A DNA stretch of 14,991 nucleotides. Source: Candidatus Saccharimonadota bacterium. Its GTDB lineage: Bacteria; Bacteroidota; Bacteroidia; Flavobacteriales; Blattabacteriaceae. Below the pieces are notes generated by a model. The model made no database searches. It saw only the letters and a list, made by a program, of their open reading frames with translations, and was not told the DNA's origin. This document shows positions 1 to 14,991 of the stretch, one piece after another. Where the stretch lies: contig CP099826.1 of NCBI GenBank assembly GCA_029851245.1, positions 136,282-151,272 of the forward strand, in the 5' to 3' direction. A program made the translations under genes and the position numbers. Numbering within the stretch: the stretch's first letter is position 1; each line of letters opens with the position of its first letter.

Positions 1-460
1 CTTTAAATAAAAAACCATTAGTATAAATTTTATGTTTTAAAGGAATTGTAAAAATTTTTAAAGAATCATTTTCATATATTTTATTAAATTTTTTTTTTTT
101 TAAAGTAATATAATTAATTTTATATGTAATTTTAGTTTTTGACCATTTAAAATTTTCATTAATAATATTTTTTAATCCTTTAGGAGAATAAATATTAAGT
201 GGATTTTTTCTACCTAATAATTGATAAGTTGATAAAATTCCCATTATTCCATAATAATGATCACCATGTAAATGAGAAATAAAAATATTATTAATTTTAT
301 TAATTTTAATTTTAGCTCTAATTAATTGTACTTGTGTACCTTCTCCACAATCTATTAAATAATAATTTTCTCTCATATATAAAATTTGTGATGTAGGATG
401 AAATTTTTTTTTAGGTAAAGAAGAATTACAACCTAATATAATAACATAAGATTTAATCAT
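1..460 (-). CDS. rnz: Ribonuclease Z (tRNA 3' endonuclease, metallo-beta-lactamase fold). This is the N-terminal part; the C-terminus lies beyond the window start.
   Basis: Not in the ORF track because it is truncated by the window edge. My manual minus-strand translation from the ATG (plus-strand 'cat', 458-460) is open all the way to base 2. It reads MIKSYVIILGCNSSLPKKKFHPTSQILYMRENYYLIDCGEGTQVQLIRAKIKINKINNIFISHLHGDHYYGIMGILSTYQLLGRKNPLNIYSPKGL... The LGxxSxxP...DCGEGTQ...IFISHLHGDH(Y/F)xG...GR..PLxIYxPxGL pattern is the RNase Z signature, including the HxHxDH zinc motif. Confidence 0.85.
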   Translation of the reverse strand, partial: MIKSYVIILGCNSSLPKKKFHPTSQILYMRENYYLIDCGEGTQVQLIRAKIKINKINNIFISHLHGDHYYGIMGILSTYQLLGRKNPLNIYSPKGLKNIINENFKWSKTKITYKINYITLKKKKFNKIYENDSLKIFTIPLKHKIYTNGFLFK

Positions 461-510
461 ATTATAATTTATTTTAACATATAAATTTAAATATAATAAT
501 AAATAAAATT

Positions 511-3012
511 ATGTATAAAGAAACACCTTTAATTAAACAATATTATAAATTAAAATTAAAATATCCTGATACAATATTATTTTTTCAAGTAGGAGATTTT
601 TATGAAATTTTTGGATATGATGCAATATTATGTTCAAGAATATTAGAAATTACTTTAACTAAAAGAAATAAAAAAAATAATAATAGTATTTATTTAGTAG
701 GTTTTCCTTGTAAAGCATTAAATATTTATTTAAATAAATTAATAAAAAAAAATATTAAAGTAGCAATATGTAATCAAATATTAAATAATAATAATATTGA
801 AAATAATAAATTAATAAAAAGAAAAATTACTAATATAGTAACTCCTGGAATATCAATTTATGAAGATATTACAAAAAAAAAAAATAATAAAAAATATGTA
901 ATTTCAATATTTTTTAATAAAAGAAATATTTTTGGAATATCATTAATAGAATTTTCTACAGGAGATTTATTAATAACTGAAGGGAATTTAAATTATATAA
1001 AACATATTATAAATTGTTTTAATCCAATAGAATATTTTATAAAAAAAAAATTAAAAGAAAAATTTTATAATTATTTTAATATTAAAAATAATATTACATT
1101 ATTAAATAATAAATTATATAATTATAAATTTACATATAAAATATTATTAAAACATTTTAATATTTTATCATTAAATCGTTTTGGTATAGAAAATATGTAT
1201 TATAGTATAATTTCTTTAGGAGTATTAATTTATTATATAAAAAAATATTATAATTTAAATTTAAATCATATAAATAATATTAAAAAAATTGAAAAAGATA
1301 AATATGTATGGATAGATGATAACACAATAAATAATTTAGAAATTATTAAACCATTAAATAAAAAAGGTAAGTCATTATTAAATATATTAGATAATACATA
1401 TACATCTATGGGTTATAGATTATTAATAAATTGGTTATTATTACCTTTAAAGGAAAAAAAAAGTATTTATAGAAGACAAAAAATAATATATTATTTTTTT
1501 AAAATAAATGATAAAATTAAATTAGAATTAATATATAATTTAAAATTAATTTATGATATAGAAAAAATATTATCAAAAATTACTAATAATAATATTAATC
1601 CTAATCAGTTATATAAATTTATATATTCTATAAAAAAAATAAATAATATATTAAAAATAATAAAAATTAAAAATAATTATAAAATTTTTAATATAAATAT
1701 AAAATATATAAATAATATAAATAATATATATAATAAAATTAAAAAAGTTTTAATTAAAGATCCTATAAATAAATTTAATAAAAAGTTTTATATACAAAAA
1801 AATATATCAAAAAAATTAGATATTTATAAAAATAAATTAAAAAAAAATAAGAAATATATATATAATTATTATAATAATATAAAAAAAAATATTAATATAA
1901 ATTATTTATTAATAAAAAATAATGATTTATTAGGATATTTTATAGAAATTAAAAAAAAAGATAATTATAAAATACCTAAAGATTGGATAAAAAAACAAAA
2001 ATTATCAATTTATATTAGATATACTACAAAATTAATTAATAAATATGAATATATAATTTTAAATATTAAAAAAAAAATTTTTATTTATGAAAAATTAATA
2101 TTTAATAATATTATAAATTATTTAAAAAAAAAAATTAAAATTTTTAAAAAAATCTCATATATTATAGCAAAAATTGATGTTTTATTTTCATTATATATTA
2201 CTGCAAAAGAAAATAATTATATTAGACCAAAAATAATAAATAATAAATTAAAAAGTATAAAAATAATAAAAGGTAGACATCCTGTAATAGAAAAAAATAT
2301 TAATAATTATTATATTTCTAATGATATTTATTTAGATAATAAAGATAATCAAATATTAATTATTACTGGACCAAATATGTCAGGAAAATCTGCAATTTTA
2401 AGACAAACAGTATTAATTATTATAATGGCACAAATAGGAAGTTATGTACCTGCTAAAAAAGTATATTTTAATATAGTAAATAAAATATTTAGTAGAATAG
2501 GTGCATCAGATAATATTTCAATAGGAGAATCAACATTTATGATTGAAATGAATGAAACTTCAAATATATTAAATAATATTAATGAAAATAATTTAATAAT
2601 AATGGATGAAATTGGAAGAGGTACTAGTCCAAATGATGGAATTTCATTATCTTATTCTATAATAAAATATTTAATAAATAATAAATATAAACCTAAAGTA
2701 TTATTTGCAACACATTATCATGAATTAAAAGAATTATTATTATTTAATAAAAAAAATATTAAATATTATTATTTATCAATTAAAAAAAAAAAAAAAAAAA
2801 TTATATTTATAAGAAAATTAAAAAAAGGATTAAATAGTAATAGTTATAGTAGTTATATAGCAAAAATAGCAGGTATACCTAAAATAATAATTTATGATAG
2901 TAAAAAAATTAATAATTTATTAAAAAAAAAAAATATTATAAGTTTTTTATTTTATAGAATATTATCATTATTATATATAATAAAAAATTATTTTTTTGCG
3001 AAAGTAGTTTAA
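511..3012 (+). CDS. mutS: DNA mismatch repair protein MutS
   Basis: 833-aa ORF. The N-terminus reads TPLIKQYYKLKLKYPDTILFFQVGDFYEIFGYDA, the domain I mismatch-binding F-x-E motif. Walker A (ITGPNMSGKSAILRQ), Walker B (LIIMDEIGRGTS), ATHYHEL and the C-terminal SYSSYIAKIAGIP (SYGI-VA-LAG-P type) are all present and in frame. The last 15 nt overlap tRNA-Gly. Confidence 0.93.
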   Translation: MYKETPLIKQYYKLKLKYPDTILFFQVGDFYEIFGYDAILCSRILEITLTKRNKKNNNSIYLVGFPCKALNIYLNKLIKKNIKVAICNQILNNNNIENNKLIKRKITNIVTPGISIYEDITKKKNNKKYVISIFFNKRNIFGISLIEFSTGDLLITEGNLNYIKHIINCFNPIEYFIKKKLKEKFYNYFNIKNNITLLNNKLYNYKFTYKILLKHFNILSLNRFGIENMYYSIISLGVLIYYIKKYYNLNLNHINNIKKIEKDKYVWIDDNTINNLEIIKPLNKKGKSLLNILDNTYTSMGYRLLINWLLLPLKEKKSIYRRQKIIYYFFKINDKIKLELIYNLKLIYDIEKILSKITNNNINPNQLYKFIYSIKKINNILKIIKIKNNYKIFNINIKYINNINNIYNKIKKVLIKDPINKFNKKFYIQKNISKKLDIYKNKLKKNKKYIYNYYNNIKKNININYLLIKNNDLLGYFIEIKKKDNYKIPKDWIKKQKLSIYIRYTTKLINKYEYIILNIKKKIFIYEKLIFNNIINYLKKKIKIFKKISYIIAKIDVLFSLYITAKENNYIRPKIINNKLKSIKIIKGRHPVIEKNINNYYISNDIYLDNKDNQILIITGPNMSGKSAILRQTVLIIIMAQIGSYVPAKKVYFNIVNKIFSRIGASDNISIGESTFMIEMNETSNILNNINENNLIIMDEIGRGTSPNDGISLSYSIIKYLINNKYKPKVLFATHYHELKELLLFNKKNIKYYYLSIKKKKKKIIFIRKLKKGLNSNSYSSYIAKIAGIPKIIIYDSKKINNLLKKKNIISFLFYRILSLLYIIKNYFFAKVV
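2782..2800 (+). repeat. A19 homopolymer inside the mutS coding sequence. It encodes K6 and is the longest mononucleotide run I found in the window.
   Basis: Counted directly: 'caat t' is followed by 19 a, then 'ttatattt'. It reads ATT AAA x6 ATT. The conserved downstream MutS motif stays in frame. Confidence 0.97.
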
Positions 3013-3070
3013 TAGGTAGAACATAACCTTGCCAAGGTTAAGGTTACGGGTTCGATTCCCGTCTTTCGCT
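2998..3070 (+). tRNA. tRNA-Gly (anticodon GCC), no encoded CCA
   Basis: Folded by hand. Acceptor GCGAAAG/CTTTCGC, D stem GTTT/GAAC, anticodon stem TAACC/GGTTA with loop TTGCCAA, 5-nt variable loop, T arm ACGGG-TTCGATT-CCCGT, discriminator T. It is a GC-rich island in AT-rich surroundings. Confidence 0.9.
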
Positions 3071-3082
3071 AAAATTTATTAT

Positions 3083-3171
3083 GCCTAGATGGTGAAATAG
3101 GTAAACACGCAGGACTTAAAATCCTGTAATTCAATAAATGAATTTTGCGGGTTCGATTCCCGCTCTAGGCA
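3083..3171 (+). tRNA. tRNA-Leu (anticodon UAA), class II with a long variable arm, no encoded CCA
   Basis: Acceptor GCCTAGA/TCTAGGC, anticodon stem CAGGA/TCCTG with loop CTTAAAA, variable-arm hairpin AATTCA-ATAAA-TGAATT, T arm GCGGG-TTCGATT-CCCGC, discriminator A. Confidence 0.9.
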
Positions 3172-3193
3172 TTTAAAGAATAAATATAAATAA

Positions 3194-6100
3194 TATGTTT
3201 TTTTTTTTGATACTGAAACAAATGGATTACCAAAAAATAATAAATTTTATTTAGAAAATATTTTAGATTGGCCACGTTTAATACAAATATCATGGCAAAT
3301 ATATAATAAGAATGGAAAATTAATTAATTATAATAATTATTATATAAAAAATAAAAATATAAATATTAATAAAAAATCATATTTTATAAATAAAATTAAA
3401 AAAAAAACTTTAAATATATATGGTAAAAATATAAAATATGTATTAAAAAAATTTTATAAATATTTAATTATATCTGATTATATTATAGGTCATAATATTA
3501 ATTTTGATTGTAATATTATAATTAGTGAATTATATAGATTAAAATATTATAAAATTAGAGAAATATTTTTAAAAAAGAAAAAAATAGATACTCAAAATAT
3601 ATTTACAAAAAATAAAAATTATAAATGGATAAGTTTAAAAAAAATATTTAAAATATTATATAAAAATATAAATATAAGTAAAAATAATTTATATCATAAT
3701 TCATTTTTTGATGTTTATATAAATGTATTATGTTTTATAAAAATGATTTATTATAAAAAAATTATTTTTAATTTTAAAATAAATATAAAAAATATATTAA
3801 AAAATATTTTAAAAATTAAAATTTATAATTTTTTATTTAAAAAAAGAATAGATAATATATATAAAAAATATTTTTTTAATATACATAATAAAAGTCATTA
3901 TTCAATATTAGAATCAACAATAAAAATTAATTTACTAATTAAAAAAGCTATTAAATATAAAATGAAAGCTATTGGGATAATAGATAATAATATGATGGGA
4001 ATGTATGAATTTATTAATACTATTAATAATATAAATAATAATCATAAAAAAAATATTATAAAAGCAATAATAGGAATTAAAATATTAATTTTAAATGAGA
4101 ATAATGAATATTTTAATTATTATATAATAGCAAAAAATAAAATAGGATATTATAATTTAATAAAAATTACAAGTTATAGTAATATTAAATATAATAATAA
4201 AAATTATATAAATAAAAAAATAGTTAAAAAATATAGTAAAGGTTTAATATTTTTAATAGGTACTTTAAACACTGAAATATCAAATAATATAATAAATAAT
4301 AAAATAAATAAAGTTAAAAAAATATTATTATATTGGAAAAAAATATTTAATAATGATATTTATATTGAAATTTTTAAAAATGATAATATATATGAAAATA
4401 AAATTAATAAAATATTAATAAAATTATCTAAATATTATAATATTCCTTATATAAATCAATATGAATCTTATTATTTAGAAAAAAAAGATTTTATAATATA
4501 TAAAATATTATATTGTATAAAAAATAAAATTAATATTAATATTTTAAAAAAAGAAAAAAATATATATTATAAAAATAAATATTATTTTAAAAGTTTTAAT
4601 AAAATAAAAAATAAATTTAAAAATTATTATAAAGGTTTTAAAAATTTAAGAAAATTATATAAAAAAATAAAAGTTATTAATATAAATAAAAAATTTTATT
4701 TACCTAATTATAAAATACCTAAAAATTTTTATAATAAAATTAAATATTTATATAATAAAAAAGATATTAATTATATTTATTTAAAATATTTAATTTTTAA
4801 AGGAGCTAAAAAAAAATATAATAAATTAAATAATATAATAATTAAAAGAATAAAACATGAATTAAAAATAATTAAAAAAAAAAAATTTGAAAATTATTTT
4901 TTAATAGTACAAGATATAATAATAACATCAAAAAAATTAAAAATATATGTAGGCCCAGGTAGAGGTTCAGTAGGAGGATCAATAGTAGCATATTGTTTAA
5001 ATATTACTAAAATTAATCCTTTAAAATATAATTTAATATTTGAAAGATTTTTAAATGTTAATAGAGTAAAATTACCAGATATAGATATAGATATAGATGA
5101 TGTAGGTAGAAAAAAAATAATATTATATATATTTAAAAAATATGGATATTATAATGTATCAAATATAATAACATTTAATAAATTTGGATCTAAATTAGTA
5201 ATAAAGGATACTTTTAGAGTATTTAATTTACCATATAAAGAATCAAATTATATATCAAAATTAGTAATAAAAAATTTTACTTTAAAAGAAATTTTATATA
5301 AAAGTTTATTATTTTTTAAAAATAAAATATCAAATGAAAATTTTAAGAAAATATTAAAAATAAAAAATATATATAATAATAAAACTAATATTGTAAGTAA
5401 AGTATTAAAAATAGCTATTAATTTAGAAGGTTTGATAAAAAATACAGGTATACATGCATGTGGAATAATAATATCAAAAGATAAAATTATTAATCATTTA
5501 CCATTAATGTTAAATAATAAAAATAAAAATATATTATTAACACAATATGATACTAATGATATAGAAGAAATAGGATTATTAAAAATAGATTTATTATTAT
5601 TAAAAACATTAAATATAATAAAAAATACTTTAAATAATATTATAAAAAATAAAAAAAAAATAAAATTTTATATTTATAATATTAAAACTTATAAATTATT
5701 TAAAAAAGGTAATATAATAGGTGTATTTCAATATGATTCTATAAAAATGATAAAAGTTTTAAGAGATTTAAATCCTAATAAATTTGAAGATTTAATAGCA
5801 TTAAATTCATTATATAGACCAGGTACAATAAGATATTTATATAATTATATAAATAGAAAAAATGGTAAAGAAAAAATAAACTATGATTTAAAAATAATTA
5901 AAGAATATTTAAAAGAAACATATGGAATAACAATTTATCAAGAACAAGTAATATTAATAGCTAAAAAATTATCTGGTATAAATAATTATAAAGCAGATAT
6001 ATTAAGAGAAGCTATAGCAAAAAAAAAAGTAAAAAAATTATTATTAATAAAAAATAATTTTTTTAAAAAATCATTAAATAATGGATATTCTATTAATATA

Positions 6101-7273
6101 TTAAATAAAATATGGCAAGATTGGAATAATTTTTCTTTATATGCATTTAATAAATCACATGCTACTTGTTATACATATATAACATATCAAACTGCATATT
6201 TAAAAACTAATTATAAATTAGAATATATGTGTAGTTTATTAAGTAATAATTTACAAAATTATAAAAAATTAATAAATTATATTAAAGAATCAAATAAATT
6301 AAAAATTAAAATACTACCTCCTAATATTAATAAAAGTAAAAAAAAATTTAGTATAGTAGATAATAAAAAAAATATTATAATATATGGTATAGAAGGTATA
6401 AAAAGTATTGGACAAAAAATATCAAATGAAATAATAAAAAATAATAAATATTTAAATTTATTAAATTTTTTTAAAAAAATAAATTTAAAAATAATAAATA
6501 AAAAAATTATAAATAATTTAATAATTTCAGGATCATTTGATACTTTTGGGATAAAAAGATATTTATATTTTTTAAAATATAATGATAAATATAATGTTAT
6601 AAATTATATTATAAAAAAAGTAGTAAACTATAAAAAAAATAAAAAAAGTATAAATTTTAATATTAATAAATATTTTAAAAATAAAATTAAAATTACTGAA
6701 AAAATAAAAGTATATTATATATGTAAACAAAAAAAATTATTAGGAGTATACTTAAAAGAGACTCCATTATTATATTATAAATTTGAAAAACTTATTTTAA
6801 ATATTAAAAATACAATAAATAATTATAATATTAATTATTTATTTTATGGAATATTAAATAATATAAATAAAAAAAATAATTATTATGAATTAATATTAGA
6901 AAATGATAAATTAAAAAAAATTAAAATTTATATTAATAATAATATTTATATAAAATATAAAAAAATATTAAAAATATATAATATAATAGTAATTAAATTT
7001 AATAGATATAATATAATATATATAAATACTATATATAATATTTTTAAATGTTATAATATTAATATTAATATATATAATAAAATTTTATTATTTAATAAAA
7101 TATTAAAATTTATAAAAAAAAAAAAACAAAATAATAAATATAAAAAAATAAATATAATATTATATAAAAAGAAAAAAATATTTAAAAAAAAAACATATAA
7201 TATTAAAGTAAATAGAAAATTATTATTACATATTATAAAATTTAATAAACTAATTAAATTTAATTTTTATTAA
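3194..7273 (+). CDS. dnaE: DNA polymerase III alpha subunit (DnaE-type) with an N-terminal DnaQ/epsilon-like DEDDh 3'-5' exonuclease domain in the same frame. The 5' boundary and start codon are unresolved; the ORF track begins it at the internal ATG at 3743.
   Basis: DnaE motifs in the 3743-7273 ORF: GPGRGSVGGSIVAYCLNITKINPL..LIFERFLN, catalytic LPDIDIDIDD, GIHACGIIIS, GVFQYDS, NSLYRPG, YQEQV and FNKSHATCYTYITYQTAYLK. I checked codon by codon that this frame has no stop back to the TAA at 3191-3193. That adds 183 codons, which encode the exonuclease domain. Confidence 0.85.
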   Translation, partial: YVFFFDTETNGLPKNNKFYLENILDWPRLIQISWQIYNKNGKLINYNNYYIKNKNININKKSYFINKIKKKTLNIYGKNIKYVLKKFYKYLIISDYIIGHNINFDCNIIISELYRLKYYKIREIFLKKKKIDTQNIFTKNKNYKWISLKKIFKILYKNINISKNNLYHNSFFDVYINVLCFIKMIYYKKIIFNFKINIKNILKNILKIKIYNFLFKKRIDNIYKKYFFNIHNKSHYSILESTIKINLLIKKAIKYKMKAIGIIDNNMMGMYEFINTINNINNNHKKNIIKAIIGIKILILNENNEYFNYYIIAKNKIGYYNLIKITSYSNIKYNNKNYINKKIVKKYSKGLIFLIGTLNTEISNNIINNKINKVKKILLYWKKIFNNDIYIEIFKNDNIYENKINKILIKLSKYYNIPYINQYESYYLEKKDFIIYKILYCIKNKININILKKEKNIYYKNKYYFKSFNKIKNKFKNYYKGFKNLRKLYKKIKVININKKFYLPNYKIPKNFYNKIKYLYNKKDINYIYLKYLIFKGAKKKYNKLNNIIIKRIKHELKIIKKKKFENYFLIVQDIIITSKKLKIYVGPGRGSVGGSIVAYCLNITKINPLKYNLIFERFLNVNRVKLPDIDIDIDDVGRKKIILYIFKKYGYYNVSNIITFNKFGSKLVIKDTFRVFNLPYKESNYISKLVIKNFTLKEILYKSLLFFKNKISNENFKKILKIKNIYNNKTNIVSKVLKIAINLEGLIKNTGIHACGIIISKDKIINHLPLMLNNKNKNILLTQYDTNDIEEIGLLKIDLLLLKTLNIIKNTLNNIIKNKKKIKFYIYNIKTYKLFKKGNIIGVFQYDSIKMIKVLRDLNPNKFEDLIALNSLYRPGTIRYLYNYINRKNGKEKINYDLKIIKEYLKETYGITIYQEQVILIAKKLSGINNYKADILREAIAKKKVKKLLLIKNNFFKKSLNNGYSINILNKIWQDWNNFSLYAFNKSHATCYTYITYQTAYLKTNYKLEYMCSLLSNNLQNYKKLINYIKESNKLKIKILPPNINKSKKKFSIVDNKKNIIIYGIEGIKSIGQKISNEIIKNNKYLNLLNFFKKINLKIINKKIINNLIISGSFDTFGIKRYLYFLKYNDKYNVINYIIKKVVNYKKNKKSINFNINKYFKNKIKITEKIKVYYICKQKKLLGVYLKETPLLYYKFEKLILNIKNTINNYNINYLFYGILNNINKKNNYYELILENDKLKKIKIYINNNIYIKYKKILKIYNIIVIKFNRYNIIYINTIYNIFKCYNININIYNKILLFNKILKFIKKKKQNNKYKKINIILYKKKKIFKKKTYNIKVNRKLLLHIIKFNKLIKFNFY
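3198..3208 (+). repeat. T11 homopolymer between the only upstream ATG (3195-3197) and the first exonuclease motif codon (GAT at 3209)
   Basis: Counted directly: 'atg', then 11 t, then 'gatactgaaaca'. Eleven T's place the ATG in a different frame from the long ORF. Twelve or nine would place it in frame. Confidence 0.95.
3209..3742 (+). other. DEDDh (DnaQ/RNase T superfamily) exonuclease domain, upstream of and in frame with the dnaE ORF
   Basis: Translation: (FFF)DTETNGLPK...WPRLIQISWQIY...IIGHNINFDCNIIISEL...LYHNSFFDVYINVLCF. Exo I is D-x-E (GAT 3209, GAA 3215). Exo II is H-N-x-x-F-D (3491-3508). Exo III is H-x4-D (CAT 3695, GAT 3710). All four acidic residues and the His are present. Confidence 0.8.
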
Positions 7274-7354
7274 ATTTTATAATTATTAAAATATTAATAT
7301 TTATTAATTTTAAAAAAAATTAAAAATAATATTAATTATATTATTAAAAATAAA

Positions 7355-9931
7355 ATGTATAATACAATAAAAAATATAATTAATTTTTATATTAAAAAAT
7401 ATAAAAATAATAAAAATAAAAAAATATTATTTATATTACCTAATAATAAATATATAAATATTATAAAAAATATTTATTTAAATAATAAAGATTATAATTT
7501 AATATATAAATTATTAATAACTAAAAAAAAATTTATAAAATTAATAACAAATTTAAAAGTAGTTAATAAATATAAATTATATAATATATTATTAAATATT
7601 ATAAATAATAATAAAAAAAATAAATTTTATAAAATTTCATATTTAAAATTATATAAATTAATTAATAAATTAATAAATATATTTAATAAAATTGATAATA
7701 ATTTATTAAATGTTAAAGATTATTTTAAAAATAAATTTATATATTATAAATTATCAAAATGGTATCCAAATATAAAAAATAAAATTAAAAATTATAATAA
7801 ATATAAATATTATTATTTAATATATAAAAAATTTATTAAAAAAATTAAAAATTATAAAATTTCATATATTGGATTAGCAAAAAGAATTTTAATTAAAAAA
7901 ATAAATAATTTTATAAAAAATAATAAAAAATATTATTTTATTTTTATAAATTATAATTTTTATTATAAATCTGATATTAAAATAATAGAAAAAATATATT
8001 TTAATAAAGTAGGAAAATTTATTTTAAATTTTGAAAAATTTTATTTTAATAAAGATAATGAATTTTATAAATTATTTAATAATTTTAATAAAAGTAAAAT
8101 TTTAAAAAAAAATATAAAATATATTAATAATAATAAAAAGAATAAAAATATTAATTTATATAAGGGATTTAATATTATTGAAAAATATTTAATTATAAAT
8201 AAAATAATAAAAAATATAAATAATAAGAATAAAATTAATATAATATTTACAAATAATAAATATTATAATTTATTATTAAATTTTATTAAAAAAAAAAAAA
8301 TAAATTTTGATTTTAAAATAAATGTTAATTTTTTAGATATTAATAAATTTTTATTATTAATAATAAAAATTATAATTAATAATAAAATATATAAAAATAA
8401 ATATTATTTTAAAAAAAAATATATTTTATATTTAATAAAAAATAATAATATAAAGTATTTAATTAAAAAAAAATATATAAAATATATTAATAATTATATT
8501 GAAAATAATATATATAATAAATATATAAAATATATATTTTTTAAAAAAAAATATATAAAAAAAATATTTTTATTTAAATTAATAAAATATAAAAATAATA
8601 TTAGTAAAATATTATTATTATTAATAAATATAATAATTAATAAAATTATAAAAAATATTAAAATTAACAATATTGATATTATATATTTATATAAAATTAA
8701 AAAATTTTTAAAAAGTTTATTTAAAAATATTAATAATAATTTAAATTTTAAATTTAATATTAAAAAATTTTATAAATTATATTTAATATATATAAAAAAT
8801 TTAAAATTAAATGTTAAAAATAATAATAATAATAATTTAAATATAAAAATATCAGATGTTAATAATATAATATATAATAATTATAAAACTTTAATATTAA
8901 TATTTGATTATAGTAATAAATATAATAAAAAAAATATAAAATATTTTATTAAATTATATAAAATATATAAAATATTACAAGAATCAAAAAATATATATAT
9001 AATTTATAGTAATAATGAAGAATATTTTATAAAAAATAGTTATTTTTTTAAAAATATTTTAAAAAATAAAAATATTAAATATTATAACTATAAAAATAAT
9101 TTTAATATTAAAATAAATAATAAATTAATAATAAAAAATATTAATTATAAAAATAATAAAAATATTAATTTTTCTTTTACAAAGATTAAAAATTATTTAA
9201 TAGATAAAATAAATTATTATTATAATATATTAAGAATAAATGATAATAATGAATATCAAAAATATGGAATAATATCACATAAAATAATATTTAATTTATA
9301 TAAAAAATATATAAATGTTGATTTAAAATATAAATATATAAAAGATATTAAAAAAAAATTTATAAAAAATATTAAAAATGAATTTTTTAAAAATTATAAA
9401 TATTTAAAATTTAATAAAAAATTATTATATATATATAATATTATAAAAAATAATATATTAAATATTATAAATTATGATGAAAAATTATTATTAGAAGGAA
9501 ATAGTATAAAAATAATAAATTTAGAAAAATATAAAAGTAAAAATATATTTAATTATAAAAATAAAAATATTTATTTAAATGGTATAATTGATAGAATAGA
9601 AAAATTTAATAATAATTATAAAATAATTGAATATAAATTTATATTTAATTTTTATACAAATTATATAAATATTAATACTTTAAATATTAATAATATTAAT
9701 AAATTATTTAATAATTATAAATATTTTAATTATTTACAAATTTTAATATATTGTTATTTAATATATAAAAAAAAATATAAATATTTATATTTTTCTATAT
9801 ATTTTCCTTATAATAATATTAAATTATTAAAAATAAATTATAAAATAATTAAAATATTTAAAAAAATATTATTTAATAAAATATTATATATATTAAAAAA
9901 TAATAATTTAAAATTGAATTTAGATTTTTAA
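7355..9931 (+). CDS. Highly diverged PD-(D/E)XK nuclease family protein, AddB/RecB-like, resembling the roughly 900-aa nuclease proteins of Bacteroidota
   Basis: 858-codon ORF made up almost entirely of K/N/I/Y/F/L. Only the C-terminal RecB-type nuclease core is recognisable: GIIDRIEK (Asp codon 9590-9592), IIEYKF (E-x-K, 9629-9637) and YLQILIYCYL (Q-x3-Y, 9737-9751). The N-terminus KKILFILPNNKYINIIKNIYL resembles the 'vfvlPskRa..fl' start I recall for this family. An ORF this long would not stay open by chance in DNA where TAA is so frequent. Confidence 0.55.
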   Translation: MYNTIKNIINFYIKKYKNNKNKKILFILPNNKYINIIKNIYLNNKDYNLIYKLLITKKKFIKLITNLKVVNKYKLYNILLNIINNNKKNKFYKISYLKLYKLINKLINIFNKIDNNLLNVKDYFKNKFIYYKLSKWYPNIKNKIKNYNKYKYYYLIYKKFIKKIKNYKISYIGLAKRILIKKINNFIKNNKKYYFIFINYNFYYKSDIKIIEKIYFNKVGKFILNFEKFYFNKDNEFYKLFNNFNKSKILKKNIKYINNNKKNKNINLYKGFNIIEKYLIINKIIKNINNKNKINIIFTNNKYYNLLLNFIKKKKINFDFKINVNFLDINKFLLLIIKIIINNKIYKNKYYFKKKYILYLIKNNNIKYLIKKKYIKYINNYIENNIYNKYIKYIFFKKKYIKKIFLFKLIKYKNNISKILLLLINIIINKIIKNIKINNIDIIYLYKIKKFLKSLFKNINNNLNFKFNIKKFYKLYLIYIKNLKLNVKNNNNNNLNIKISDVNNIIYNNYKTLILIFDYSNKYNKKNIKYFIKLYKIYKILQESKNIYIIYSNNEEYFIKNSYFFKNILKNKNIKYYNYKNNFNIKINNKLIIKNINYKNNKNINFSFTKIKNYLIDKINYYYNILRINDNNEYQKYGIISHKIIFNLYKKYINVDLKYKYIKDIKKKFIKNIKNEFFKNYKYLKFNKKLLYIYNIIKNNILNIINYDEKLLLEGNSIKIINLEKYKSKNIFNYKNKNIYLNGIIDRIEKFNNNYKIIEYKFIFNFYTNYININTLNINNINKLFNNYKYFNYLQILIYCYLIYKKKYKYLYFSIYFPYNNIKLLKINYKIIKIFKKILFNKILYILKNNNLKLNLDF

Positions 9932-10903
9932 TCCTAATTTATTTTTAATATTGTAAATTTTTTTTTTTGAAATATATTTAATTTTTTTATAATTTATATA
10001 TAATATTTTTTTTATAATATTAATATTATTAATATAATAATTAAATTTTTTTCTTTCTTTACTATAAAATTTTAATATATAATTATATAATTTTTTTTTA
10101 ATATTATAATACCCTATTTTATTATTTTTAATTTTTTCTTTTAAATAAATTATTTCTTCTTTATTTGTAATAATTTTATATAATTTATATAAAATAGTAC
10201 TTTTAAAATTATTATATGATATAAATTTATTATTAGTTTTAATATTCATAATTTGATTTTCTAATATAGTTTTATTTTCAAAAATATTAATAATATTATT
10301 ATTAGATTTACTCATTTTATTACCATCAATACCAGGAATAATTTTATTATATATTATTTTATAATTGGGTAATTTAAATAAATTACTATTAATTTTAGAA
10401 TTAATAATTTTAGCAATTTTTCTTGTAAATTCTATATGTTGTATTTGATCTTTACCAATAATTACATAATTAATATCATATAATAATATATCAGATGCCA
10501 TTAATATAGGATAATTAATTATACCAGTATTAATATTATTATTTTTATTATTTTTAAAAACATGTGATAATTTTAATCTATTAAAAGGGAAAAAACAATT
10601 TAAATACCAAAATAATTCTGTAATTTCTTTAATATCAGATTGTCTATAAAAATAAATATTATTTTTTTTAAAATTAAAATTTAAAAAAGATAACCATACA
10701 GAAATAGTATTATATATATTATTAATTAATATATTTTTATTATTATAATTGGTTATAGAATGTAAATCTGCAATTAATATAAAAAATTTTTTTTTTTTAT
10801 ATTTATTAATATATAAAATTGTAGGGTTAATAACACTTAATATATTAGCTATATGTGGAGTACCAGTAGTTTTTATACCAGTCATATAATTATTAAATTT
10901 CAT
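9920..10903 (-). CDS. trpS: Tryptophan--tRNA ligase
   Basis: 327 aa. It has a class I HIGH-type motif (TGIKTTGTPHIANILS) and a KMSKS motif (DGNKMSKSNNN). Length and layout are typical of bacterial TrpRS. An alternative start at the second Met (cat 10883-10885) is possible. Confidence 0.9.
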   Translation of the reverse strand: MKFNNYMTGIKTTGTPHIANILSVINPTILYINKYKKKKFFILIADLHSITNYNNKNILINNIYNTISVWLSFLNFNFKKNNIYFYRQSDIKEITELFWYLNCFFPFNRLKLSHVFKNNKNNNINTGIINYPILMASDILLYDINYVIIGKDQIQHIEFTRKIAKIINSKINSNLFKLPNYKIIYNKIIPGIDGNKMSKSNNNIINIFENKTILENQIMNIKTNNKFISYNNFKSTILYKLYKIITNKEEIIYLKEKIKNNKIGYYNIKKKLYNYILKFYSKERKKFNYYINNINIIKKILYINYKKIKYISKKKIYNIKNKLGLKI

Positions 10904-10927
10904 AAAATATTAAAATTTTATATATAA

Positions 10928-11179
10928 TTATGTAGGAATTACATAAACATAAGTTTTTTTATTTATTTTTTTATATTTTATAATACCATCTATTTTAGAA
11001 TGTATTGTAAAATCTTTACTTAAATATGTATTAATACCTGAATAATATTTATTACCTCTTTGTTTAATAATAATATTTCCAGGTTTTGTAATAGCTCCAC
11101 TAAATAATTTTACTCCTAATCTTTTACCGATAGAATCTCTACCATTTTTAGTACTACCTACACCTTTTTTATGTGCCAT
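10928..11179 (-). CDS. rpmA: 50S ribosomal protein L27
   Basis: 83 aa. MAHKKGVGSTKNGRDSIGKRLGVK...IIKQRGNKYYSG is the canonical L27 N-terminus. Confidence 0.96.
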   Translation of the reverse strand: MAHKKGVGSTKNGRDSIGKRLGVKLFSGAITKPGNIIIKQRGNKYYSGINTYLSKDFTIHSKIDGIIKYKKINKKTYVYVIPT

Positions 11180-11507
11180 ATTTTTTAATTTTAATAATTT
11201 TTAATTTAGTTAAATATTGTCTATGTCCTTTTTTAATTTTATAACCTTTTCTTCTTTTTTTTTTAAAAATAATTATTTTATTATCTTTAATATTATTAAT
11301 AATAATTGCTTTAATTATAAAATTTTTAATTTTTGGATTTCCAATATATATTTTATTATTAATATCTTTAACTAATAAAATATTTTTTTTAAAATATATA
11401 ATATCATTAATATTATATTTTTTTAATTTATTTATATAAATAAATTTTTTAGGAAAAATTAAATATTGATGATTACCGAATTTTATTATTGCTTCTTTAT
11501 AAAACAT
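11169..11507 (-). CDS. rplU: 50S ribosomal protein L21
   Basis: 112 aa. The sequence contains ...GNHQYLI...IIIFKKKRRKGYKIKKGHRQYLTKLKI, the L21 KRRK..GHRQ signature. It lies immediately upstream of rpmA (the conserved rplU-rpmA pair) and overlaps it by 11 nt. Confidence 0.92.
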   Translation of the reverse strand: MFYKEAIIKFGNHQYLIFPKKFIYINKLKKYNINDIIYFKKNILLVKDINNKIYIGNPKIKNFIIKAIIINNIKDNKIIIFKKKRRKGYKIKKGHRQYLTKLKIIKIKKYGT

Positions 11508-11545
11508 TATAATAATTATTAATTATATTATTTATTATATTATAA

Positions 11546-12994
11546 TTATATAATATTATTTTTGAAAAATGATGTAATATTAAATTTTTTTTTAAAAAAT
11601 TTATTTAAATTATTAATATTATATATAACTTGTTTCATATTATCTCTAAATCTTATTGTTACAGTATTATTAATAATAGAATTTTTATCAATTGTAATAC
11701 AAAAAGGAGTACCTATAGAATCTTGTATTTTATATCTTTTACCGATTGAATTATTATCATTATAAATAGTAGTAAATTTATATTTTAAATTATTATAAAT
11801 TTTTTTTGAAATTTTAATAATTTTTTTTTTCTTAATTATTGGTAATATTGCTATTTTTATAGGTGATATAAAATATGGTAATTTTAAATAAATTCTTTTT
11901 TTATTATTAATATTTTGTATTTTTAATGAAGATATTAATATAGAAAAAAATAATCTATCTAATCCTAATGAAGTTTCAATTATATATGGTATATATTTTT
12001 TATTTGTTTTATTATTAAATAAATATAAATTTTTTTTAGAATATTTAATATGATTTTTAATATCATAATTTTTTCTAAAATGTATACCTTCTAATTCTTT
12101 AAATTTATTAAAAAATTTAAAATTAATATCTATTGCAAATTTTGAATAATGTGATAATTTTTTATGTTTTTTTAAACTATATTTATTTTTACCTAAATTA
12201 AAATAATAATGCCAATTTAATCTAGATTTTATCCAATATTTATACCATTTTTTTTCTTCTCCAGGTAATATAAAATATTGCATTTCCATTTGTTCAAATT
12301 CTTTAGTTCTAAATATAAATTGTTTAGAAATTATTTCATTTCTAAAAGATTTCCCTATTTGTGCAATACCAAAAGGAATTTTTAATCTATTAGAATTAAT
12401 TACATTTTTAATATTAATATATATACCTTGTGCAGTTTCAGGCCTTAAATATAAATACTTATTGTAATTATTAATATTATTTATATAAGTTTTAAACATT
12501 AAATTAGTTTTTTTAATATTTTTCCAATAATAATATTTTAACAAATTATTATTATTAATAATTTTTTTTAATAATTTATTAAGTTTATAAATATTATTAT
12601 TTTTATAATATTTATTAAATAAATTAATAATATATTTTTTTTTAATTTTATTATTAATTTTTAATAAAATTTTTTTAAATAAATCTTCTATAATATATAT
12701 TTTATTATTTTTTTTATTTATAATATAATATTCATTAAAATATTTAGTATGACCTGATGCTTTTAATACTATATTATTAGTAAATATTGAAGTTTCAATA
12801 CCTACAATATTATTTCTATATTTTACCATATAATTCCACCAAAATTTTTTAATATTATTTTTCATTTCTATTCCTTGTGGACCATAATCATATATAGATT
12901 TTATACCATTATATATTTCACAAGATTTATATATAAAACCATATATTTTAGCATGATTAATAATAATATTTAATTTTTCATTATATTTTATCAT
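11546..12994 (-). CDS. glyQS: Glycine--tRNA ligase, single-chain (alpha2 dimer) GlyQS type
   Basis: True start is MIKYNEKLNIIINHAKIYGFIYKSCEIYNGIKSIYDYGPQGIEMKNNIKKFWW (ATG = 'cat' 12992-12994). Class II motif 2 is FRNEIISKQFIFRTKEFEQMEMQYF and motif 3 is ETSLGLDRL. The 26 extra N-terminal codons in the ORF track (MVEQRTENPCVPGSIPGDT...) are a read-through of the tRNA-Phe gene. Confidence 0.92.
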   Translation of the reverse strand: MIKYNEKLNIIINHAKIYGFIYKSCEIYNGIKSIYDYGPQGIEMKNNIKKFWWNYMVKYRNNIVGIETSIFTNNIVLKASGHTKYFNEYYIINKKNNKIYIIEDLFKKILLKINNKIKKKYIINLFNKYYKNNNIYKLNKLLKKIINNNNLLKYYYWKNIKKTNLMFKTYINNINNYNKYLYLRPETAQGIYINIKNVINSNRLKIPFGIAQIGKSFRNEIISKQFIFRTKEFEQMEMQYFILPGEEKKWYKYWIKSRLNWHYYFNLGKNKYSLKKHKKLSHYSKFAIDINFKFFNKFKELEGIHFRKNYDIKNHIKYSKKNLYLFNNKTNKKYIPYIIETSLGLDRLFFSILISSLKIQNINNKKRIYLKLPYFISPIKIAILPIIKKKKIIKISKKIYNNLKYKFTTIYNDNNSIGKRYKIQDSIGTPFCITIDKNSIINNTVTIRFRDNMKQVIYNINNLNKFFKKKFNITSFFKNNII

Positions 12995-13014
12995 AAAATT
13001 TATAATTATATAAA

Positions 13015-13087
<73 letters not shown>

Positions 13088-13097
13088 AATAATATAT

Positions 13098-13766
13098 TTA
13101 TATACTTAAATATTTGAATTTTTTAATATAAATATTATTAATATTATATTTTTTTTTTATAATTAAATTAAATTTTTTAATATTTTTTTTATTATATTTT
13201 ATATTATTAATAATAATATATATAGATAATTTTTTAGTAATAATTTTTAATTTTTTATTATTATAATTTTTTTTAATTTTAAAACATATTATTAAAGAAT
13301 GTTTATAATTATGATGATTATAATTATGAATATAATAATTTTTAAATTTATAAAAATTTGAAATTTTAATTTGTTCTTTTAAAATAATATTAGTTTTTAA
13401 TATTTTATTAATAATGATTTTATTATTTATTAAATCATTTAAATTATTAATATTATTATTTAATAAAGTAATTTTAATAATTTTTTTAATAAATTTTTTA
13501 AAAATAATATTTTTAATTATAAAATCTGATAAAAAATTAATTTTTAAAATTATACCTATATTATTATTTTTATTTTTTTTAGATATTGTTATACCATTAT
13601 TAATATTATTATTAATTACAATATTATAATTAAATTTTTTATAAAAATATTTAATAGAATTTTTAATATTCCATTTATTTTTCATTAAAATATTTTTACA
13701 ATATATTATACTTAATTTAGTAATTTTTCTAAAATTAATTATTTTTTTAATTTTTTTTATATTCAT
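13098..13766 (-). CDS. tsf: Translation elongation factor Ts (shortened, 222 aa)
   Basis: The N-terminus IKKIKKIINFRKITKLSIIYCKNILMKNKWNIKNSIKYFYKK fits the EF-Ts UBA-like domain (LR..TG....dCKkAL.e..gD...Ai..LRkkG). It sits directly downstream of rpsB, the conserved rpsB-tsf pair, with a 20-nt overlap. The rest is too diverged to judge by eye, and it is shorter than typical EF-Ts. Confidence 0.78.
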   Translation of the reverse strand: MNIKKIKKIINFRKITKLSIIYCKNILMKNKWNIKNSIKYFYKKFNYNIVINNNINNGITISKKNKNNNIGIILKINFLSDFIIKNIIFKKFIKKIIKITLLNNNINNLNDLINNKIIINKILKTNIILKEQIKISNFYKFKNYYIHNYNHHNYKHSLIICFKIKKNYNNKKLKIITKKLSIYIIINNIKYNKKNIKKFNLIIKKKYNINNIYIKKFKYLSI

Positions 13767-14478
13767 TATATTTTAATAATTTTTTTTCTCTTTTTTTAAA
13801 CCCTTTAATTATTGATAAAGTTAATCTTTTTAATATAAATTTTACAGATTTATAAGAATCATCATTAGCAATAATAGGATAATCAATATTATTAGTAGAA
13901 CAATTAGTATCTATAATACCAATTATATATATGTATGATTTAATAGCTTCTTTTAATGCTATAAATTCTTTTTTAATATCTACTATTATAATAAATAAAG
14001 GTAATTTATTTAAATTTATAATAGAACCAAATTTTTTATTAATTTTTTTATATTTTCTATTTAATAATAGTTTTTCTTTTTTAGATAAATAATTATATAT
14101 TGTATTTTTTTTAGTTTTAATATTTTTTTTTTTATTAATAGAAAATTTAGTTATTTTAATATTACTTAATAAACCTGCTGGCCATTTATTATTAATATAA
14201 GGCATATTAACTATTTTTGCATATTTTTTTATTAAATAACTAATTTGTTTTTTAGTACCTAAAAATAATATTTTACCTCCTATATATGCACATTTTTGTA
14301 ATATTTTTTCTGCATTATTTTGTAAATTTATATATTTAATAGGATTAATAATATCTATATTATTTTTTTTAAATAAAATATATTTAGTAATATTATAATT
14401 TCTTTCTGAAGTATTATGTCCTAATAAAATTTTATTTTTATAAATAATTTTTAATAATTTTTTATTAATTTTTAACAT
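13747..14478 (-). CDS. rpsB: 30S ribosomal protein S2
   Basis: 243 aa. LLGHNTSERNYNITKYILFKKNNIDIINPIK...GGKILFLGTKKQ...NMPYINNKWPAGLLSN matches the S2 pattern (GvHFGH...WNPkM..yIf....IhIIdL.kT...G.kiLFVGTKkqa...pYVn.RWlGGmLTN). Confidence 0.94.
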   Translation of the reverse strand: MLKINKKLLKIIYKNKILLGHNTSERNYNITKYILFKKNNIDIINPIKYINLQNNAEKILQKCAYIGGKILFLGTKKQISYLIKKYAKIVNMPYINNKWPAGLLSNIKITKFSINKKKNIKTKKNTIYNYLSKKEKLLLNRKYKKINKKFGSIINLNKLPLFIIIVDIKKEFIALKEAIKSYIYIIGIIDTNCSTNNIDYPIIANDDSYKSVKFILKRLTLSIIKGFKKREKKLLKYNEYKKN

Positions 14479-14508
14479 TTTTTTTAAATAATTAAATAAT
14501 AATTAATT

Positions 14509-14991
14509 TTAACGTTTAGAAAATTGAAATTTTTTTCTAGCTTTTTTTCTACCATATTTTTTCCTTTCAACAATTCTAGAATCTCTAGTTAATAAATAAT
14601 ATTTTTTTAATATTTTTTTATATTTATTATCAATTAAATAAAGAATTTTTGAAATTCCTAATGAAATAGCTTCTGATTGTCCAGTATATCCACCACCTTT
14701 AATATTAATATTAATATGAAATTTATTAATATTTTTAGTAATTATTAAAGGAAATAATATTTTATAAATAATAATATTATTATTTTTAAAATATATATTA
14801 TATTTTAATTTATTTATTTTTATAAAATATTTTTTATTTTTATTTTTTTTATATAAATATATTGAAGCAATAGAAGTTTTTCTTTTTCCTATTGAATGAT
14901 AATATTTAATAATTTTTTTTTTTATAATTTTATTTTTTATAATTTTATTTTTTATAATTTTATTTTTTATAATTTTATTTTTTATAATTTT
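14509..14991 (-). CDS. rpsI: 30S ribosomal protein S9. No ATG occurs within the window; the frame stays open through a tandem repeat to the window end.
   Basis: Not in the ORF track. Manual minus-strand translation gives ...(KNKII)n KKKIIKYYHSIGKRKTSIASIYLYKKNK...INIKGGGYTGQSEAISLGISKIL...LTRDSRIVERKKYGRKKARKKFQFSKR*. The GxRKtsxA, GGGxxGQ and C-terminal ...KKaRKxxQFSKR motifs are diagnostic of S9. The stop codon is TAA at 14509-14511. Confidence 0.9.
   Translation of the reverse strand, partial: KIIKNKIIKNKIIKNKIIKNKIIKKKIIKYYHSIGKRKTSIASIYLYKKNKNKKYFIKINKLKYNIYFKNNNIIIYKILFPLIITKNINKFHININIKGGGYTGQSEAISLGISKILYLIDNKYKKILKKYYLLTRDSRIVERKKYGRKKARKKFQFSKR
14918..14991. repeat. Perfect 15-bp tandem repeat (ttttttataatttta), about 4.9 copies, running into the window end
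   Basis: Read directly. Units are at 14918-14932, 14933-14947, 14948-14962 and 14963-14977, with a partial unit at 14978-14991, and there are no mismatches. The period equals 5 codons. On the minus strand only the rpsI frame is open across it (KNKII repeated); the other two frames hit TAA in every unit. Confidence 0.93.

Follow-up and report, generated by a model that had tools for sequence, protein, structure and literature searches.

The dnaE gene of the 14,991-nucleotide (nt) stretch of DNA analysed here (the window) encodes a replicative DNA polymerase with a fused proofreading exonuclease, and the start codon of this gene lies out of frame with the fusion, separated from it by a run of eleven T's (T11). 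We consider that T11 is probably a real, inherited 1-nt deletion which is rescued by slippage on the run, such that the full-length proofreading polymerase would still be made. The anatomy of the start site, its conservation among relatives and the continued constraint on the exonuclease domain are the observations that carry this reading, and from them we infer the slippage and its efficiency.

Every element of the start region described in the initial annotation was found in place when its coordinates were checked in the window. On the + strand, a TAA stop codon (3191..3193) stands in the exonuclease-dnaE frame one codon before the T-run, ruling out in-frame initiation farther upstream. The ATG at 3195..3197 (+), in the +1 frame relative to the exonuclease-polymerase open reading frame (ORF), is followed by exactly 11 T's (3198..3208, +), the putative slip site, and GAT 3209, directly after the run, opens a frame of 1,354 codons. 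Read literally, the ORF from this ATG (3195..3254, +) comprises only 19 codons, MFFFLILKQMDYQKIINFI, and comes to a dead end at TAG 3252-3254. Positions 3194-3742 form 183 stop-free codons in the same frame as the dnaE start given in the ORF track (3743), and the ORF listing of the window holds no ATG, GTG or TTG in this frame before 3743, leaving the exonuclease-DnaE fusion with no conventional in-frame initiation codon in the window. The base composition of the region (51% A, 38% T) predicts one stop in roughly eight codons, which makes the probability of 183 codons without a stop 1.3e-11; in the remaining five frames, 12-34 stops were counted per frame over this stretch. The open frame is not due to chance.

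The relatives have 12 nt at the site of the T-run, forming four codons rich in Phe, Leu and Ile, so that the 11 T's of the window amount to a 1-nt deletion, a single indel within an A/T run of at least 9 nt. Alignment with Blattabacterium, Karelsulcia and free-living Bacteroidota gave a family N-terminus of M-x-x-x-x-D-T-E-T-T-G-L, in which four residues separate M from D, which makes ATG 3195 the true dnaE start and calls for 12 nt before GAT. The earlier proposal of this ATG as the start is consistent with the M-x-x-x-x-D-T-E-T portion, which is invariable in the family, and the position of the start ATG is kept in 7/7 clade-A loci. In-frame non-AUG initiation was also considered and rejected. 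An AUA occurs two or three codons upstream in four lineages, but in the window and in CP099824 the TAA directly precedes TAT-GTT-T9, and neither an in-frame start codon nor a near-cognate one lies in the interval before the run, so that the upstream AUA is not a general solution.

The 183 codons are predicted to encode a DEDDh (DnaQ/epsilon-like) 3'-5' exonuclease domain (3209..3724, +), as evidenced in Pfam, alignment and structure-profile comparisons. The profile search of 3194-3742 that had been suggested in the initial annotation gave 32.7 bits against Pfam RNase_T (PF00929), above the curated cut-off of 24 bits. The domain, to which the peptide MFFFFDTETNGLPK belongs, contains the motifs DTETNGL (D 3209, E 3215), HNINFD (D 3506) and HNSFFD (H 3695, D 3710), in which the D-x-E of Exo I, the D of Exo II and the H-x4-D of Exo III were all found, the catalytic codons being D 3209-3211, E 3215-3217, D 3506-3508, H 3695-3697 and D 3710-3712. 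In an alignment of the window with ten relatives, D6, E8, D105, H168 and D173 are invariant columns and constitute the DEDDh catalytic set. A profile built from this alignment matched DnaQ 8h18 (4e-8), the PolC exonuclease 2p1j (5e-8) and E. coli epsilon 1j53 (1e-5, residues 9-178); a PDB search with the exonuclease domain as a single sequence gave no match, the profile being required. The RNase_T score, together with the matches to epsilon and the PolC exonuclease, upholds the DEDDh assignment that had first been made from the motifs.

Downstream of the exonuclease, a linker of ~50 residues (3725..3880, +), which holds ATG 3743, the ORF-track and annotated start, leads into the DnaE1 polymerase body (PHP, Pol III alpha, fingers and HhH), which extends through the stop codon (3881..7273, +). 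The Pfam families PHP, DNA_pol3_alpha, DNA_pol3_finger and HHH_6 were recognised in this body, in frame with the exonuclease domain. From 3209 to 7273 there is no stop and no change of frame, with RNase_T covering residues 4-177 and PHP residues 230-393 (Pfam). PF00929 likewise stands ahead of PHP in the DnaE of Blattabacterium, Karelsulcia and hundreds of free-living Bacteroidota (1,400-1,475 aa), and Timinskas et al. (PMC3919608) reported that the exonuclease-DnaE1 architecture is specific to Bacteroidetes, with a fusion linker of ~60 residues. The N-terminal epsilon fusion of Bacteroidota DnaE, mentioned in the initial annotation, is thus real and ancestral.

The window was then compared with the dnaE loci of its nearest relatives, of which the start regions were read. 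The window DnaE (1,176 aa) clusters at a minimum of 90% identity with a protein of the same length (P0169), recorded as BDT61556.1 (Flavobacteriales endosymbiont of Rhyzopertha dominica) and WGH25882.1 (Candidatus Shikimatogenerans bostrichidophilus). AP026967.1, a complete genome encoding this protein, matches the window at 100% identity along 6,531 bp, T11 and all other homopolymers included. The window belongs to the Shikimatogenerans symbiont of R. dominica, a beetle. ATG + T11 + GAT was read in the window and AP026967.1 as well as in CP104096, CP104094, CP099822, CP099824 and CP099823, giving the same run in seven assemblies from six lineages, or 6/8 members of the clade. CP104095 has T12 and is in frame, and P0004, as well as the whole sister clade, has an interrupted tract (MFLFFD..., MFLFID...), also in frame. 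The DnaE tree unites all T11 genomes in a single clade that also contains CP104095 and P0004 as nested members. The distribution of T11 follows phylogeny, unlike that of sporadic errors, and the frameshift is conserved across strains and species (six lineages, one clade). DnaE identity among the window lineage, CP104096 and CP099822 is 60-64%, indicating that the clade is deep and that T11 has either been inherited through several speciation events or arisen repeatedly.

The frame behind T11 has remained open. From GAT it runs for 1,354, 1,323, 1,402 and 1,410 open codons in four T11 genomes, and in the remaining two no stop interrupts it before the end of the exonuclease domain, with the catalytic D, E, D, H and D intact in all T11 genomes. 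Values of dN/dS, obtained by the Nei-Gojobori method only and used solely for comparing the exonuclease with the rest of the gene, since absolute values are unreliable at ~10% GC, were 0.46 (exonuclease) and 0.19 (rest) for CP104096/CP104094 and 0.28 and 0.49, respectively, for CP099822/CP099824, all four genomes being T11. The ratio of exonuclease to core divergence is 0.85-1.11 in T11 pairs, compared to 0.81-1.45 in in-frame lineages. The exonuclease domain therefore evolves no faster than the polymerase core in T11 lineages, and the gene is otherwise intact and under purifying selection.

These data bear on the possibility that the exonuclease is untranslated, with DnaE translation beginning internally, for instance at ATG 3743, and the 183 codons upstream being the remnant of a very young pseudogene. 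Gene callers and the public annotation do begin DnaE at 3743, and two sister lineages without the domain keep DnaE, suggesting that an exonuclease-less polymerase is viable in the genus. However, ATG 3743 is not conserved, its position being Leu in relatives, and the annotated start falls within PHP in CP099824 and past the Exo I motif in CP099822. In addition, all six T11 lineages combine intact catalytic residues with an open frame where chance would place a stop every ~8 codons; their evolutionary rates match those of in-frame lineages, and the frameshift predates several speciation events and is hence not young. An untranslated exonuclease is highly improbable on these grounds, and the open frames, intact catalytic residues and normal rates speak equally against the recent inactivation of the proofreading domain that had been listed among three options in the initial annotation.

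The two Shikimatogenerans lineages without the exonuclease domain, CP099828.1 (1688-1830) and SRR19201377_8386 (236-520), have lost it by clean deletion, leaving their replicase without a fused proofreader. Their dnaE starts at PHP, ~40 nt past tRNA-Leu (e.g. MKKKISFFNIHNYTHY). When Shikimatogenerans was searched for a stand-alone dnaQ, the split exonuclease ORF of CP099823 was the sole match, although the fused proteins were not listed either, so that absence is not shown by this result. As a separate observation, the exonuclease-less dnaE start of CP099828.1 (1728-1760) is also out of frame across a T11. It reads ATG AAT TAT AAA AAT TTT TTT TTT TAA, the PHP frame (NIHNYTNY...) is +1 to this ATG, and a run of ten T's (T10) would restore the frame. 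Alternatively, translation could start at an in-frame ATT or ATA shortly before this ATG.

A homopolymer-length error in the assembly had been taken as the most parsimonious explanation in the initial annotation; the true length would then be T12, under-called by short-read assemblies, and dnaE an ordinary fused ORF. Homopolymers of at least 11 nt are error-prone, and PCR during library preparation favours contraction. The genomes of the relatives were indeed assembled with SPAdes from Illumina reads (PMC10284843), and other lineage-specific frameshifts occur in their dnaE genes at A14, A21 and T15. Nevertheless, this explanation needs the same -1 error at one site in seven assemblies and at least two pipelines (that of the Logan contig and those used for the public records), and yet T12 in CP104095, whereas errors are expected to be sporadic and not to follow phylogeny. 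The calling of T12 in CP104095, alongside T11 in its close relatives CP104094 and CP104096, demonstrated that T12 is callable at the dnaE start. The Logan contig ERR3173699_16620, which holds the window, and AP026967.1 are separate assemblies and agree at every base over the 6,531 bp, including A12, A13 and A19. The window has 20 genic A/T runs of at least 10 nt, these three (12, 13 and 19 nt) among them, and the frame is kept at 19/20, only the dnaE-start run breaking it. Examples of T11/T12 tracts of the window that are in frame are those at 9958-9968 and 10787-10798. Across seven loci, long open frames contain at least 40 A/T runs of 11-13 nt, the dnaE start runs not counted. A systematic bias, if present, would have to be specific to the dnaE-start site. 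Given an identical T11 in seven assemblies of six lineages and at least 40 runs of similar length in frame, we can no longer regard an assembly error as the most parsimonious option and consider it very unlikely.

Several points weigh against a real deletion rescued by slippage. All assemblies are Illumina-based, and a common systematic under-call of T12 may formally be possible; ERR3173699 may not be independent of the data behind AP026967.1. The dnaE frameshifts at the longer runs A14, A21 and T15, each confined to a single genome, could be errors, and the assemblies are not immune to them. Nei-Gojobori dN/dS is distorted at ~10% GC. The deletion of the exonuclease domain in two sister lineages indicates that selection on this domain is not absolute in the genus.

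The three longer runs are located at ~2500-2515 of CP104094.1 (A14), ~1415-1435 of CP099823.1 (A21) and ~1445-1460 of JAMYFC010000007.1 (T15). Each frameshift splits the annotated gene and is either a real slippage-dependent site or an assembly error. In CP099822.1 (1-500), a T11 genome, mutS is split into calls of 452 aa and 240 aa beside A9/A16 runs, a further candidate homopolymer frameshift, in this case in a DNA-repair gene.

Of the three options in the initial annotation, a genuine frameshift with slippage rescue, the slippage being inferred, fits best. In the proposed mechanism, a 1-nt deletion would have occurred in an ancestral 12-nt T-rich tract coding for residues 2-5 of the exonuclease-DnaE fusion and would have been inherited through an entire clade of Shikimatogenerans symbionts. 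The product would have to start at the out-of-frame ATG and regain the frame within the run. Most likely, RNA polymerase would realign on the A11 template and add one extra U in a fraction of the transcripts, and ordinary translation of the corrected mRNA from AUG 3195 would provide MFFFFDTETNGL... up to the dnaE stop. Uncorrected transcripts would give the 19-residue peptide only, suggesting that DnaE output is probably lowered rather than abolished. A review by Atkins et al. (PMC5009743) describes the realignment of bacterial RNA polymerases on A/T runs of at least 9 nt and cites cases including Buchnera aphidicola and Blochmannia pennsylvanicus, and conserved homopolymer frameshifts have been reported in Blochmannia dnaX and dnaG (PMC3017870). 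Transcriptional slippage is the best-supported route.

The region upstream of the start is densely packed. A tRNA-Gly(GCC) gene (2998..3070, +; ARAGORN; Rfam tRNA, 74.1 bits) overlaps the last 15 nt of mutS (2998-3012; the mutS ORF ends at 3012) and is followed by tRNA-Leu(UAA) (3082..3172, +; ARAGORN and Rfam), the order mutS-tRNA-tRNA-dnaE being kept in relatives. The end of tRNA-Leu lies 22 nt from the dnaE ATG in the window and 3 nt from it in CP104094-96, leaving no room for a leader or promoter, so that dnaE probably shares a transcript with the tRNAs. Processing of the tRNAs would then probably generate the 5' end of the dnaE mRNA, with almost no leader. A scan for promoters and terminators gave no excess over shuffled sequences, and Rfam returned only three tRNAs.

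The shift could instead be purely translational, with ribosomes starting at AUG 3195 and peptidyl-tRNA-Phe slipping -1 on U_UUU_UUG while the mRNA stays unedited. A formal X_XXY_YYZ heptamer, U_UUU_UUG, is present at 3203-3209 in the 0 frame of ATG 3195, tRNA-Phe re-pairs perfectly in the -1 frame, and UUG, which occupies the A site in the 0 frame, is a rare Leu codon ending in G in a genome of ~10% GC. The analogous T11 of CP099828 stands directly before UAA, a classic slippery-codon-plus-stop context for +1 shifting. Against this route, folding of 3173-3300 revealed no frameshift-stimulating RNA structure downstream (z = 0.11 vs shuffles), the AT-only sequence just upstream of the ATG offers no Shine-Dalgarno-like or G-rich stimulator, and the rescue experimentally demonstrated in AT-rich endosymbionts is transcriptional (PMC5009743). 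A purely translational shift is therefore rather unlikely; a -1 slip of peptidyl-tRNA-Phe on UUU_UUU_UUG may nonetheless contribute beside transcriptional slippage, yielding the same product, MFFFFDTETNGL.

Obligate symbionts are polyploid, and their cells might contain both T11 and T12 genome copies, arising through replication slippage, of which a T12 minority gives functional DnaE while the consensus reads T11. The presence of T11 and T12 in close relatives (CP104096 and CP104095, respectively) suggests that the tract is mutable, and replication slippage at such tracts is an accepted source of indels (PMC3017870). However, with a T11 consensus in six lineages, T12 would have to persist as a stable minority everywhere, and we find this improbable. 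Such heteroplasmy is compatible with slippage at the RNA level, and the two would probably act together.

We also doubt that T11, rather than being merely tolerated, has come under selection because it acts as a recoding switch at the mRNA 5' end of the replicase. In that case, the output of the proofreading polymerase would be deliberately low or tied to transcription conditions (e.g. UTP supply), because the corrected fraction depends on the addition of a U by RNA polymerase. The second, independent T11 in CP099828 and the near-fixation of T11 over T12 (6/8) would then reflect selection for an out-of-frame start, and the dosage of polymerase and proofreader would be linked to the extreme AT drift.

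If T11 is real, the only replicative polymerase of these bacteria, with its fused proofreader, would be made solely upon a specific 'error' of RNA polymerase or the ribosome. The slippage rescue of Buchnera and Blochmannia would extend to Bacteroidota and to the core replicase, and the frameshift would have persisted through several host speciation events. A feedback loop is suggested, in which less polymerase and proofreader would lead to more replication slippage and AT drift, in symbionts whose genomes rank with the most AT-rich and most reduced known from bacteria.

The frameshift also affects annotation. In the public records examined, dnaE is N-terminally truncated (924-1,384 aa, with 1,176 aa for the R. 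dominica symbiont records) or starts inside tRNA-Leu, and gene-content comparisons based on such a mis-annotated dnaE would wrongly score the proofreading domain as missing or broken, and the two other lineages in which the domain has truly been lost would be obscured. In CP104096.1 (3001-3051) and CP104094.1 (1206-1256), the annotated dnaE ORF starts at an ATG within tRNA-Leu, MNFAGSSPALGIYVFFFD, as a 5' fragment in CP104094; this start is an annotation artefact arising from the T11 frameshift. Extension of the ORF into tRNA-Leu, as in the CP104096 annotation (MNFAGSSPALGIYVFFFD), was rejected as an explanation of the start, given that it translates tRNA sequence and is blocked by the TAA in the window. 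The words frameshift, homopolymer and polymerase are not used in the main text of the genome paper for the genus (PMC10284843).

Several other features of the locus were recorded. The GC content of the window is 10.4% overall (1-14991), falling to 5.2% in tsf and 4.0% in orf858, compared to an average of 15.1% in the published genomes of Shikimatogenerans (PMC10284843); the window is thus well below the genus average and among the lowest seen for bacterial DNA. orf858 (7355-9931, +) is 858 codons long, with 90% of its residues K, N, I, Y, L or F, and is open while the other two forward frames hold 115 and 224 stops, making it an extreme example of protein coding in almost pure AT. It gave a weak match to PD-(D/E)XK nucleases (22.6 bits). 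ORFs of 843-878 aa beside dnaE in loci L007 and L009 (PDDEXK_1 in L009) resemble counterparts of orf858, and orf858 is absent at this position in CP104094-96. orf858 (+) and trpS (-) converge and share 12 nt at their 3' ends (9920-9931), reflecting tight gene packing. A 508-aa ORF for a class II aminoacyl-tRNA synthetase (11546-13072, -), called from a TTG start, begins in the antisense of tRNA-Phe (13014-13088); its real start is probably the ATG giving MIKYNEKL, ~26 codons downstream.

Among known systems, the exonuclease-DnaE1 fusion of Bacteroidetes (PMC3919608) shares with the window an N-terminal DEDDh exonuclease, a linker of ~50-60 residues and then PHP, the domain order here being that of Blattabacterium, Karelsulcia and free-living Bacteroidota. 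It differs in that the start codon here is out of frame with the fusion and that the exonuclease module has been deleted in two sister Shikimatogenerans lineages. UTP-sensitive reiterative transcription takes place at T-runs near mRNA 5' ends in E. coli pyrBI, codBA and upp, which resemble dnaE in that the T-run lies very close to the mRNA 5' end and allows extra U's to be added by RNA polymerase. Those runs are 3-4 nt long, lie in the initially transcribed region and regulate promoter escape, whereas transcription of dnaE here probably starts upstream of the tRNAs. The dnaX gene offers a case in which another gene of the Pol III holoenzyme is decoded via slippage on a homopolymeric or near-homopolymeric run, by -1 ribosomal frameshifting at A_AAA_AAG in E. 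coli and by transcriptional slippage at A9 in Thermus. In dnaX both products of the recoding, tau and gamma, are useful, and stimulators flank the site in E. coli; here, in contrast, reading without a shift leads to a dead end after 19 residues, and the search for a stimulator was negative.

The closest likeness in kind is to the slippage-rescued frameshifts of Buchnera and Blochmannia (Tamas et al. 2008 and Wernegreen et al. 2010, via PMC3017870 and PMC5009743), which similarly consist of a 1-nt indel in an A/T run of at least 9 nt in an AT-rich obligate symbiont, in a gene otherwise intact and constrained, with the frameshift common to several species. In Blochmannia, replication genes are hit as well (dnaX and dnaG). 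Unlike those Gammaproteobacteria, the bacterium here belongs to Bacteroidota, and the gene concerned is the replicative polymerase with its fused proofreader. Moreover, the site lies at codons 2-5, so that every molecule of product depends on the slip, and it is conserved across lineages with only ~60% DnaE identity. With these differences, the T11 of dnaE adds to the known slippage-rescued homopolymer frameshifts of AT-rich endosymbionts.

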